Source: an uncultured delta proteobacterium
Lineage (GTDB): Bacteria > Desulfobacterota > Desulfobacteria > Desulfobacterales > UBA2156
Direction of reading: 5' to 3'
Length of the DNA stretch: 64,000 bases
NCBI GenBank assembly: GCA_963736855.1
Contig: CAVTQK010000015.1
Location: forward strand, 480,001-544,000
Each line of letters starts with the position of its first letter. Position 1 is the stretch's first letter. Made by a program: the position numbers and the translations under genes. The notes under the pieces are model-generated. The model did no database searches, was not told the origin of the DNA, and saw only the letters and a program-made list of their open reading frames with translations. This document shows positions 3,091 through 61,366 of the stretch, piece by piece.

Positions 3091-3716
3091 GGATGTACTC
3101 TCCTTTCGAGAAAAAGTTGTCGACGCATTAAGCGTCCATCGCCCCTTTGACTCCTATGTGGGCCGCGGTGATGGCGTTGGTCATGGGGCGATAGCGCAGC
3201 TGCTCGAAACCGATTCTCGCCAGCACTGCGGTCAGTTCCACCTAACGGATAGCTGGGGCCATCGGCCATTGTTTATAACCTGATGGAAAAAATCTCTAGA
3301 CTGGAGCACAACAAACATCATTTATCATGCAGCACTTTCAGCGAGAGCCGCTGTTCATCAACTGATAAGAAGTTGCTTTTTTGTTGGCGGATTAAGTGCG
3401 GGACTGAATTGTGTTTTTCCATCATCTGCGACCCAAGATATGGGAACCTGCAGTTGACAAGGCTTATGAATTTTCAACTATCCGAAGGTGAATGCGCTGT
3501 CAACTGGAATTTTATCGGCTGTCCCCACAAGTATGTTGTAAAAACATCTGCATAGTGGTAAATTTCATAATTTAAATATTATCATGCCATTCCTTGAATC
3601 CAGAAGGTGGATGCATTAAATTCTTACAAGATGAAGGGTTTCTTTCAATGTGCACTCAACCGATAACTGTTGTATCCCCAAACCATATCCGGCACCAAGA
3701 GGAAGCCGTTTTACGG

Positions 3717-7360: not shown

Positions 7361-7654
7361 ATGGATTTTAAATTGATGATGACCACCTTCATCATGATAT
7401 TCCTGGCAGAGCTTGGAGATAAGACCCAGGTGGCCACATTTTGCCTTTCCGCCGACTGCGAGTCTTCGAGGCTATCGGTTTTCCTTGGATCCGCCGTCGC
7501 CCTGGTGATCAGTGCGCTTATCGCCACGGCACTAGGGGACGTGGTCACTCGATTCATTTCTCAAAGTCATATCAAACTGATAGCGGGCGCCGTTTTCATC
7601 ATCTTCGGAGTCTTCACATCGTATGCAGCCATTCGTTCGATATTCTTTTCTTAA
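7361..7654 (+). CDS. TMEM165/GDT1 (UPF0016) family, single-repeat protein
   Basis: FLAELGDKTQ signature; AGGAGG RBS. Confidence 0.9.
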   Translation: MDFKLMMTTFIMIFLAELGDKTQVATFCLSADCESSRLSVFLGSAVALVISALIATALGDVVTRFISQSHIKLIAGAVFIIFGVFTSYAAIRSIFFS

Positions 7655-7730
7655 ACGAGGCAGAGGGTAATAGACGTAAAATCGCTAATTGAAAAAGGTG
7701 ACGTATTTTAAGGTGCAGTCAATCAATGTT

Positions 7731-7923
7731 GACGAAATCGTAAAAAAAAAGCTATTTTTGCTCGCTTCGTGACCATTTTCGGGAGATGCTCACGGCTTCT
7801 CTAAATTTCAAGAACTCGGCGCAAGCGCCTCAAACAGCTTGAAATTACTAACGCTCAGCCATTCGCATCTCTTTTTCCGAAAATGCTCAAATCTCGCTTG
7901 CAAAAGCTTTTTACGAATACCTC
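7731..7923. mobile_element. Non-autonomous MITE-like element, type A
   Basis: Ends GACGAAATCGTAAAAA / TTTTTACGAATACCTC; AATGTT on both sides (7725-7730, 7924-7929); near-identical copy at 34640-34829. Confidence 0.85.
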
Positions 7924-7929
7924 AATGTT

Positions 7930-8082
7930 GATGGCTTCGTAAAAAGTCCATCTGCTGCGTTGCACTGCATCCTTCGTCATTGCGGCGTACCCATATGTAC
8001 GCCTCATTCCTCAGGATTTGCGCGCCTTGCATCTGAAGCTTTTTACTTTGCCATCCTAATTTTGAGTTTTTACGATTTCATC
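7930..8082. mobile_element. Non-autonomous MITE-like element, type B, in tandem with type A
   Basis: Ends GATGGCTTCGTAAAAAG / TTTTTACGATTTCATC; flanks AATGTT and AACGTT; inverted copy at 26685-26837. Confidence 0.85.
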
Positions 8083-8138
8083 AACGTTGCGATTTGTAGC
8101 TTCCCGTTGTTCAGTTTCTGGATAAGTGAATGACCTGA

Positions 8139-8705
8139 TTAGGGCAGGGCCTCCAGGATGGACTTGGACATGTATTCGGCGGTGTCGGCCAAGGCATCGA
8201 TAGGGGCGAAGGAGAGGGCATTATTGGAAAAAAGGCATGTGGCCGAGGCCGGGAAATCCTCATCGGCACGGTAGAAGATGTAGCACAAGGCAATTTTGGG
8301 GAAAGGTTGCACGACAAATGAGAAATCACCTCCGACGCTGGGAGGACCGGGGGATCCGCTGAGGCGTCTCAGGAAGGATTCCCGGGTCATTCGGATAGCC
8401 TCCACATGCGGGACCAATACCTGCTGAGTCCGGGCAGCAAAGGCGGCCACATAGGGTGCACTGTTGGGAAGGTCTTTGAATGCTTTGAAGGGTTCTAGGA
8501 TCATTTCTTCACTTCCGGCATGGAGGGCATAAAGGGAAATGAGAATTCCCAAGACCCCCTCTTCCTTTTTTCCTTTGAGAAATATGCCTTCCGGATGGAT
8601 GACGCAATTCATCCCAAGAGTCTGAAATTCAAGACTTTTTATTTTAGGATTCTTAAAAAGCATCCTGATGTTTTCTTGTACGATCTTCGAGTAATTGCCG
8701 GTCAT
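8139..8705 (-). CDS. DUF3786 domain protein
   Basis: GDFSF..PFPKI..YIFYRADEDFPASATCLF motif. Confidence 0.8.
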   Translation of the reverse strand: MTGNYSKIVQENIRMLFKNPKIKSLEFQTLGMNCVIHPEGIFLKGKKEEGVLGILISLYALHAGSEEMILEPFKAFKDLPNSAPYVAAFAARTQQVLVPHVEAIRMTRESFLRRLSGSPGPPSVGGDFSFVVQPFPKIALCYIFYRADEDFPASATCLFSNNALSFAPIDALADTAEYMSKSILEALP

Positions 8706-10939: not shown

Positions 10940-11113
10940 GGCGGCTTCTCAAATAGACTGCTCGCCTCTCGGGGGGATTGTACGGTATCTAACCTGAGGG
11001 CGGCATATTTGTTAACTACACCTCATCATTAGGGATTTTCGTGTATTATCCCGTGAAACGCGGGAGAGTTTTTGTTTTCGCCGTCGATCTTGATGAGTTT
11101 TTACGGGTTCATC
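10940..11113. mobile_element. Degenerate relative of type B element
   Basis: GCGGC..TACACCTCAT..AGGGATTT core and GAGTTTTTACG..TTCATC right end align by eye with element B; left end decayed; no intact target duplication. Confidence 0.55.
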
Positions 11114-26684: not shown

Positions 26685-26837
26685 GATGGCATCGTAGAAA
26701 CTCAAAATTAGGATGGCAAAGTAAAAAGTTTCAGATGCAAGGCGCGCAAATCCTGAGGAATAAGGCGTACATAAGGGTACGCCGCAATGACGAAGGATGC
26801 AGTGCAACGCAGCAGATGGACTTTTTACGAAGCCATC
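26685..26837. mobile_element. MITE-like element type B, inverted copy
   Basis: 153 bp, about 6 differences from 7930-8082; AATTTT on both sides (26679-26684, 26838-26843). Confidence 0.9.
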
Positions 26838-34639: not shown

Positions 34640-34829
34640 GATGAAATCGTAAAAAAGCTATTTTTGCTCGCTTCGTGATCATTTTCGGGAGATGCTCACG
34701 GCTTCTCTAAATTTCAAGAACTCGGCGCAAGCGCCTCAAACAGCTTGAAATTATTAACGCTCAGCCGTTCGCATCTCTTTTTCCGAAAATGCTCCAATCT
34801 CGCTTGCAAAAGCTTTTTACAAAGCCATC
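34640..34829. mobile_element. MITE-like element type A, second copy
   Basis: Interior nearly identical to 7731-7923; AATTAT on both sides (34634-34639, 34830-34835). Confidence 0.9.
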
Positions 34830-48585: not shown

Positions 48586-49257
48586 GTGAATGTATGGGTC
48601 ATCGGTTGCGGAAAATTCGGATCCAAGGCCGTGACCCAGTTACTGCGGTCAGCACCGGATGTCTCCATCACAGTGGCGGATCCGAATCCTGAAAAGTTGG
48701 TTCCGTGGGATGGACGGATAGAAATCGTCATCGGTGACGGTATTGAATTTATGACCCGGCATCTTAAAGCCGGGCCGTGGCCCGAATGGATCATTCCTGC
48801 TGCCCCGGTCCATGTGGCCTATCGATGGATCTTGGAAAATGCCTCCGGTGTTCGGCTGGAGACGATTCCCGTGCCGGAGCCCTTTGTTTCAGCGTTTCCG
48901 AATCCGTTCCGTGGAAAAGCAGGCGAGCTTTTTTTAAGCTTTGCTGATTTTCTCTGTCCCGAGGATTGCCCGGAACCGGCAGATACGTGTACGGTAACCG
49001 GCCATCCCAGGAAGGAGAACCTGTACACACTTCTCGAAAACCTCAGCCGACCCGGTTGGCCTTCCGTTGTCATCAGGAGTCGTTTGCTTTTTCCAGGTGT
49101 CGGGGGTTATCCTCCGCGTGCCCTGTATGAAATGAAAAACCGCATTGAAAACATCGAAGGGACCTTTCTTTTGAGTACTGCCTGCCGGTGCCACGGCGTT
49201 CTTCATGCACTCAAAACGGTCCGGATCGCCTTTTCTGAATCCGAGTTACAAGTCTGA
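48586..49257 (+). CDS. Rossmann-fold protein with Cys-rich C-terminal part
   Basis: IGCGKFG; CPEDCPEP..C; TACRCHG. Confidence 0.75.
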   Translation: MNVWVIGCGKFGSKAVTQLLRSAPDVSITVADPNPEKLVPWDGRIEIVIGDGIEFMTRHLKAGPWPEWIIPAAPVHVAYRWILENASGVRLETIPVPEPFVSAFPNPFRGKAGELFLSFADFLCPEDCPEPADTCTVTGHPRKENLYTLLENLSRPGWPSVVIRSRLLFPGVGGYPPRALYEMKNRIENIEGTFLLSTACRCHGVLHALKTVRIAFSESELQV

Positions 49258-59107: not shown

Positions 59108-59170
59108 GATGACTTCGTAAAAAGGTTTTGTGAGCGGCGCGAGAAAAATCAGCCTTTTTACGAAGTCATC
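59108..59170. mobile_element. Minimal MITE-like element type C
   Basis: Perfect 18-bp TIR GATGACTTCGTAAAAAGG; same end family as A and B; flanks TTCTTT / AAATTT match only partly. Confidence 0.75.
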
Positions 59171-61052: not shown

Positions 61053-61366
61053 GTCCGATAGAAGATTAATTGATAAGAAAACGCTTATTTGGTCTGAGCC
61101 TTGCTGAATAATGGAATGGTGTTTAACCGCTATACATACCCCAAGATATGGGGATATTCAGTTCTTAAGGCTTATAAATTTTTTTTACCACGATGGAGCG
61201 TACGCTGTCAAGCCGGATTTTTCGGGCATTTTGTTGAAATTTTAGCAGCCTTGGAGAACACTTCACTAACAAACTGCCGGTTAGGAGGGGTTAATCATGA
61301 AGGCATCATTTTTTTATCCCTGCATCTCTTCCCCCAGCAGGGAACTGGGTCGGCGTTTGAACGACT

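Follow-up and report, generated by a model that had tools for sequence, protein, structure and literature searches.

The locus poses a double question: how two short non-coding elements, A and B, that share their ends and differ inside came to abut with a single hexamer between them, and what moved them there. Both lie in the window (the whole 64,000-nucleotide stretch that was analysed), which belongs to a host assembly (G000) of 3.9 Mb in 25 contigs. A sequence-only reading had listed with them three further elements, B', A' and C, and all five proved to have the coordinates and the ends that it gave them (Table 1). Comparison with relatives makes it very probable that these are MITEs that match an insertion sequence (IS) of about 1.9 kb in ends, duplication and target – that they are likely moved in trans by its IS1182-related DDE transposase, and that they likely stack by way of rebuilt targets that are better than average. 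The elements are thus of a known kind, the MITE, with unusual habits: stacking, and swappable hairpin interiors.

Elements in the window and across the host genome

Table 1. Features of the window, with positions counted from its first letter
Feature	Position	Strand	Evidence
Left target hexamer AATGTT	7725–7730		Sequence; single hexamer at the empty site in G005 and in run X4
Element A (F3 family, A class), a MITE of 193 bp; the interior is a long imperfect hairpin and the ends are slightly decayed	7731–7923	+	13 paired F3 copies; fold z −5.3; covariation in four diverged A-class sequences
Hexamer AATGTT common to A and B	7924–7929		With the abutting ends, a rebuilt TC-N6-GA target
Element B (F0 family, B class), a MITE of 153 bp; the interior is a hairpin	7930–8082	+	52 paired F0 copies; fold z −4.3
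Second, degenerate end motif lying 27 bp inward from the right end of B	8039–8055	−	Sequence
Right hexamer AACGTT after B, 5/6 match to AATGTT	8083–8088		Sequence
Lone end of a sixth, decayed element (10950–11113) absent from the earlier list; one good end at 11113	11097–11113	−	End motif
B', F0 copy in opposite orientation; exact AATTTT duplication	26685–26837	−	Sequence
A', F3 copy; exact AATTAT duplication	34640–34829	+	Sequence
C, 63 bp, derived from family F2 (A class) by internal deletion; flanking duplication absent	59108–59170	+	F4 (C type), 5 copies

The flanks had been read correctly: the duplications at A, A' and B' are exact and 6 bp long, and that at B agrees in five positions of six (AATGTT/AACGTT). 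C is bounded by TTCTTT and AAATTT, that is, by no duplication. What did not stand is the claim of three unrelated interiors in the window. C aligns end to end with both ends of F2, from which it differs by one internal deletion, and F2 is homologous to A (interior score 187, against a shuffled maximum of 56.5); the interiors of A and B are unrelated (score 18.5; shuffled mean 24). C therefore belongs to the A class, as one of its deletion products, and the window holds two interior classes and not three. The junction of A and B, which had been likened to a near-palindromic recombination site, is simply a right end, a hexamer and a left end. The spacer beside the inner end-motif copy of B contains a TC-AAAATT target into which other genomic copies have inserted (four nested, at a 25-bp offset).

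Over positions 7600–8200 the Rfam covariance models gave no match at E ≤ 1, and searches of plasmid and phage DNA gave no match to the elements. Viral contigs yielded 120 stretches, and all 80 among the matches listed had a single match each. A promoter scan returned three weak sites where 0.8 were expected, and the accompanying terminator scan returned none. The window contains another short repeat, with 43-bp copies at 3432–3474 and 61140–61182 that are 81% alike.

Across the host genome a profile of the end motif matched 304 times, compared with seven times in a locally shuffled genome, and the simple paired elements number 122. Families F0 (B type), F1, F2, F3 (A type) and F4 (C type) hold 52, 25, 20, 13 and 5 of these, the rest being six singletons and one element too short to cluster. 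B is homologous to F1, and a search with the cores, which found 95 B-class and 42 A-class loci, brings the total to about 140 copies. A third interior class, a REP-type doublet (F6, F8), occurs in the host genome outside the window. Copies depart by 2–3% from the majority of their family, with which four of the 52 F0 copies are identical. The elements are short (63–193 bp), non-coding and bounded by terminal inverted repeats (17-bp ends in 122 paired copies); the ends, 17–19 bp in all, read GATG-N4-CGTAAAAAG-TC.

The genome-wide tabulation of flanks that the sequence-only reading had proposed bore out both the duplication and the target. An exact 6-bp duplication flanks 63 of the 122 paired elements (shuffled pairing: mean 3.6, maximum 9) and an exact 7-bp duplication 12 (mean 0.2, maximum 3), lengths of 2–5 and 8–10 bp show no excess over shuffled pairing, and 47 elements have neither exact form. 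The consensus from 77 solitary copies, T-c-AAnnTT-g-A, agrees with the TC-AAnnwT-G context first proposed and supports the site selectivity of the system. Within the genus the number of ends per genome varies about 50-fold, from 3 (G001) and 5 (G003) to 251 (G000) and 236 (G005). At position 238323 of host contig C15 stands a B-class copy with an end that contains the terminal repeat of the long transposase element of contig C19.

That the elements are insertions is seen from empty sites, which had been called for and which exist in the host assembly, in a congener and in two near-identical strains. Paralogous stretches of the host assembly are filled on contig C5 and empty on contig C14, where a single AAAATT stands between ATC and GAT. 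The congener G005, with flanks 91% alike, is without A and B and has one hexamer at the site; G004 has a B-like copy of its own elsewhere in the same intergenic gap. Contigs of runs X1 and X4 (two studies, about 99% alike) skip both A and B, the X1 joint omitting 358 bases – A, B and one hexamer. Host contigs C5, C10, C11 and C14 share several stretches of 4–8 kb that are 95–98% alike, by strain mixture or by duplication.

A probable partner insertion sequence in relatives

A search for IS1182 over 201 genomes of the order led to 30 loci that were examined, and six of these, all low-scoring, had MITE-type ends on both sides. With the alignment of the six as query, 80 of 523 retrieved stretches were kept, mostly titled Desulfobacterales or Deltaproteobacteria. 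Both ends are present at 60 of these 80 transposase-clade loci, as against one of 79 control windows. The median length of the clade IS is 1899 bp (about 1.9 kb). After boundary correction, the 54 copies with flanks comprise 24 with an exact 6-bp duplication, four with an exact 7-bp duplication and 26 with none, and in their logos the ends and flanks agree with those of the MITEs. Since a DDE IS in relatives has these same ends, this 6–7-bp duplication and this target logo, the elements are MITEs, and the earlier proposal of mobilisation in trans becomes probable. The long, transposase-bearing members that had been looked for are thus such insertion sequences of about 1.9 kb, found in relatives only. 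A match of the ends to a catalogued IS had been named as grounds for doubting novelty: the ends do match an IS, though one for which no catalogued name was found.

The clade transposase (583 aa in L165) is a single ORF with the domains DUF772, DDE_Tnp_1 and DDE_Tnp_1_6; D152, D356 and Y473-R476-E480 are invariant in its alignment and are the presumed catalytic residues. Its best NCBIfam match is NF033551 (IS1182), at 170, 163 and 202 bits against a cut-off of 270, and in a midpoint-rooted FastTree of 42 proteins, in which deep placement is uncertain, it forms a clade of its own (support 0.94) outside IS1182. Judged by these scores and this tree, the partner is IS1182-related and appears to be a separate clade. 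With the predicted structure (mean pLDDT 67) Foldseek listed Tn5 transposase first (E 0.055) and integrases lower, none of its matches reaching E ≤ 0.001, and a sequence search of the PDB gave no match. The source records annotate the protein only as 'transposase' or 'hypothetical protein', and the homologue and cluster listings hold no name for the IS. A sister transposase within the same clade (L080) has different ends. A clade transposase also occurs on a Microvirga plasmid (L532:746–2529), with ends that have diverged and are still recognisable, so that the clade extends to the Alphaproteobacteria.

Other partners were considered and set aside. The ISNCY profile NF033593 scored 66–72 bits against a cut-off of 325, and MITE-type ends on both sides were found at none of 30 NF033593 loci, many of which start TAGTG. 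None of the canonical IS1182, IS4/IS5, IS1380, IS1634-like and Y1 transposases of the host genome is bounded by MITE ends (the labels, where they go beyond Pfam and NCBIfam matches, are our own reading); the host's own intact-looking IS1182 has different ends, GAGTCTGTAGAAAAAG. Movement by a RAYT, as for REPs and BIMEs, was likewise rejected, given the duplications present here and the Y1 transposase matches of the host that have no MITE ends. The ISDol1 subgroup of ISNCY, 1.6–1.9 kb long with a 6–7-bp duplication, would be a further candidate for comparison; two papers give no more than the name of the group.

Neither tblastn nor profile search found a trace of the clade transposase in the 25 contigs of the host assembly. 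It was not found in 11 other genomes of the family, and it is missing from four of the five stack-rich genomes searched, most of these assemblies being fragmented. At least 50 ends are present in 52 of 151 genomes of the order, of which 14 carry the clade transposase. Such end-rich genomes make up 14 of the 27 with the transposase against 38 of the 124 without (p = 0.045, in a sample that includes non-independent kin and mostly fragmented assemblies). This split counts four divergent matches (G120, G067, G078, G190) as negative, two of them for their score alone; if all 31 transposase matches are taken as positive, the figures become 17/31 and 35/120 (p = 0.011, kin again not independent). The simplest reading would be that the IS has been lost from the host genome or is present there transiently. 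Pieces about 80% alike to a relative's IS occur in run X1, one of four runs compared, and are not assignable to the host. One genome, G482, combines many interior types with nested hairpins (L371–L382), and no transposase was found in it.

Interiors within one pair of ends

In the parts of PMC11602168 that bear on the matter, deletion of the interior from an IS is the usual origin of a MITE. The host interiors depart from this: against 61 IS interiors they match only by way of abutting MITEs (L108, L146), bar two short matches at E 0.03–0.05. From 199 loci of relatives and metagenomes we obtained 128 elements, 102 with an exact duplication and the others with one mismatch in it, and together with 11 host representatives these make 67 families. 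They contain 23 interior classes mutually unlinked by any 30-bp BLAST match, several of them hairpins of the Ssn/REP type. The proposal of different cargo within shared ends, which fails for A and C in the window, therefore holds across relatives.

The A and B interiors of the window do not match the published SRM pattern; F6, F8 and the largest family found in relatives, a doublet, do. The same hairpins occur also without MITE ends, and without them flank GIY-YIG genes in the same genomes (L515, L522). An Ssn-like gene lay between two ends at none of 20 and none of 60 loci, and hairpins stood on both sides at 32 of the 60. At L581:1458–1835 a hairpin-flanked GIY-YIG gene has a single MITE end on its right and apparently interrupts a short ORF, and at positions 48805–49013 of host contig C17 (L516) a broken GIY-YIG gene lies between partial tRNA-like repeats. 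Long elements with apparent gene cargo in relatives turned out to hold a nested IS66 (L178), ISL3 (L165, L170, L172) or rve-type element (L171), or to be two separate MITEs; the IS66-type element (L178:373–1986) sits inside a 120-bp MITE with an 8-bp duplication.

Among the A-class sequences, only four in number, both partners have changed in 23 of 49 pairs, a figure reached in none of 500 shuffles, and repair between the arms could be the source instead; in the B class the signal is weak, at 8 of 40 pairs and a covariation term of 0.07. An IHF-like motif occurs in 22 families of 64 (8.1 on average after shuffling, at most 18) and stands near the centre in 12, against 2.7 when shuffled; with one mismatch allowed, it was found in none of ten copies each of the window's own A and B families. 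Element lengths cluster near 101, 120, 133, 143 and 152 bp. Their periodicity near 10–11 bp has P of about 0.005 over families and 0.04 over super-classes, with the best family-level period at 11.4 bp and not 10.5.

Stacking, rival explanations and known systems

An element that starts GA and ends TC leaves two good targets each time it inserts. This regeneration, proposed from the first, can be given numbers: rebuilt sites at element ends score a median of 7.4 bits in the target model, empty sites one of 5.7, and if target score alone counts, 12–14 stacked insertions are expected among 140. The host genome has nine abutting pairs (a tenth junction at 6–7 bp, C17:202740, was left out as spurious) and 4–5 nested insertions in the target inside the right end of B-class copies. 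The data thus support target regeneration alone as sufficient for stacking in the host genome. The building of arrays is supported as well, by the abutting stacks of the host and by the mixed arrays of MITEs and IS of G164, a relative that carries both. Stacks of n elements carry n + 1 identical hexamers, and the junction pattern recurs in 29 of 401 genomes of the phylum, up to 36 times per genome, compared with none in the control. In G164, one array (L165) runs MITE-IS-IS-IS-MITE, the third IS containing an ISL3, five members with six AACATT; another (L167) runs MITE-IS-MITE with four AAGATT, and a third (L176) is a 7-bp chain.

The mechanism we propose would begin with the clade transposase binding both ends of a MITE and making staggered cuts, 6 or 7 bp apart, at AAnnTT in the target, with TC and GA preferred outside. 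Whatever lies between the ends would be inserted, each member independently, and the TC-hexamer and hexamer-GA junctions left behind would surpass the average site as targets; later insertions at these rebuilt targets would give chains of n elements and n + 1 identical hexamers. The transposase would since have been lost from the host genome, or would visit it transiently. The interiors would be passenger hairpins from other repeat families and not remnants of the IS, and an IHF-type bend near the centre, with helical phasing of length, might – a weaker suggestion – help the ends of a short element to pair.

A more far-reaching version is one that we regard as possible and rather doubtful. Here the unnamed DDE clade would dock at its own resident ends, with MITEs serving as docking sites both for the full IS and for further MITEs, and the one pair of ends would be a chassis that captures hairpin tags of unrelated selfish nucleases under a length rule set by IHF bending and helical phase. 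It draws on the 23 interior classes, the central IHF-like motifs, the clusters of length and the IS of G164, the copies of which are 100% identical and adjoin another end at 8 of 11 loci (seven without one decayed neighbour). The abutting share expected there is 4–5%, a rough value from six MITEs in a 400-kb sample, and even at 25% P is still 0.001; in the 80-locus clade set only 8 of 50 are stacked. The G164 figures hint at end-directed docking, and selection for sites already tolerated could produce the same excess.

Stacks might instead grow by tandem duplication, or by recombination through circles, rather than by fresh insertion. A circle junction would indeed resemble ends abutted 6 bp apart, one run has a B-B tandem joint, and the three IS copies of L165 are identical and in one orientation, so that this IS-IS-IS run may have had such an origin. 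As a general account the reading is very improbable: all nine host stacks join members of different families, which speaks against tandem duplication, and seven join the A class with the B class; IS copies lie in either orientation between diverged MITEs; and the count of stacks fits the target-only model. Less probable still, with hardly any weight left to it, is an integron-like system in which a site-specific recombinase builds exchangeable arrays at a palindromic junction. Shared ends, varied interiors, arrays and the near-palindrome had suggested it, and a cassette-like recombinase was part of the sequence-only reading. The duplications already largely refute it, the hexamer varying from site to site and being duplicated on insertion; about 120 copies are solitary and scattered, the long members encode a DDE transposase, and the long cargo that encodes none is nested IS66, ISL3 or rve-type elements.

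The third rival grants that the ends come from the IS clade and has another enzyme effect their recent spread in this lineage, such as a hairpin-recognising Ssn or HUH nuclease acting on the interior, or the host's canonical IS1182. We consider it unlikely, if the strongest of the three. The cognate transposase was not found in host or family, yet strains about 99% alike differ at the A–B site; the interiors are conserved hairpins, some matching the motif that flanks Ssn genes; and the host has both an intact-looking IS1182 and Y1 transposase matches. What weighs more is that one duplication length and one target, set by the ends, run through all interior classes. The ends of the host IS1182 are different, neither query found an Ssn homologue in the host genome, and at the 20 and 60 loci above no Ssn gene stood between two ends.

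Preferring, then, movement in trans by the IS1182-related transposase, we can set the family beside those already described. As tabulated in PMC3852290 (Table 4), the ISMac2-derived MITEs of Methanosarcina acetivorans (160 and 169 bp, 7–14 copies, 4-bp or no duplication) are similarly short and non-coding, with terminal inverted repeats and an IS1182-type partner; the present family differs in its 6–7-bp duplication, its copy number of about 140, a partner that scores under the IS1182 cut-off, its stacks and its many interiors. The IS1182 family (NF033551) shares with the partner IS the DUF772 and DDE architecture and ends that start GA, whereas the partner scores 163–202 bits against 270, branches separately and has a different end sequence. 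IS30 inserts, by the account in the sections concerned of PMC9333248, at a consensus hot spot or beside its own inverted repeats and so gives abutted ends; its transposase is of a different family, and here the ends rebuild the consensus itself. One interior class is a doublet of the SRM pattern, as in the passages on CGTC-tagged REPs, dRS3 and SRM of PMC3733652 and PMC11893778, but here the doublet is enclosed in IS ends with target duplication. Correia elements, BIMEs and Chunjie of Geobacter resemble the family as hairpin-forming intergenic MITEs, the first two with an IHF site inside, and Chunjie has 21-bp ends and 9-bp duplications, unlike the elements here; in the relevant passages of PMC3184786 and PMC10969869 none of the three is described with one pair of ends around many unrelated interiors.

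Literature searches on MITEs of IS1182 and ISNCY, MITEs of Desulfo- and Deltaproteobacteria, abutted ends, REPs, Ssn, and MITEs with IHF gave no description of this family among the matches listed, within a scope that left aside ISfinder and most subscription papers. The end motifs searched as text gave no relevant paper among the matches listed, and the passages and supplements consulted of PMC8147514 hold no match to the family. The elements form a superfamily of MITEs that goes with an apparently unnamed clade of IS1182-related insertion sequences, and the catalogue of PMC11602168 may contain them. The family is abundant in the order, and the literature searches turned up no name for it or for its partner IS. 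It offers a clean natural case of ends that rebuild their own target and yield mixed arrays. REP/Ssn-type hairpins are said, in the relevant part of PMC3733652, to be without a dedicated transposase, and the doublets enclosed here suggest a route by which a DDE enzyme could spread them. Should end-directed docking be true, the transposase could place cargo of any kind at a defined site, repeatedly and in order; otherwise the elements would be an ordinary MITE family, though an unusually well documented one.

Two observations concern canonical IS1182. Copies of it are inserted in or beside REP-doublet MITEs of the family at L062 and L057. The host IS1182 itself (L075, C15:3773–5650) has an extra copy of its own end 3 bp past its right end, a second case of self-abutting.
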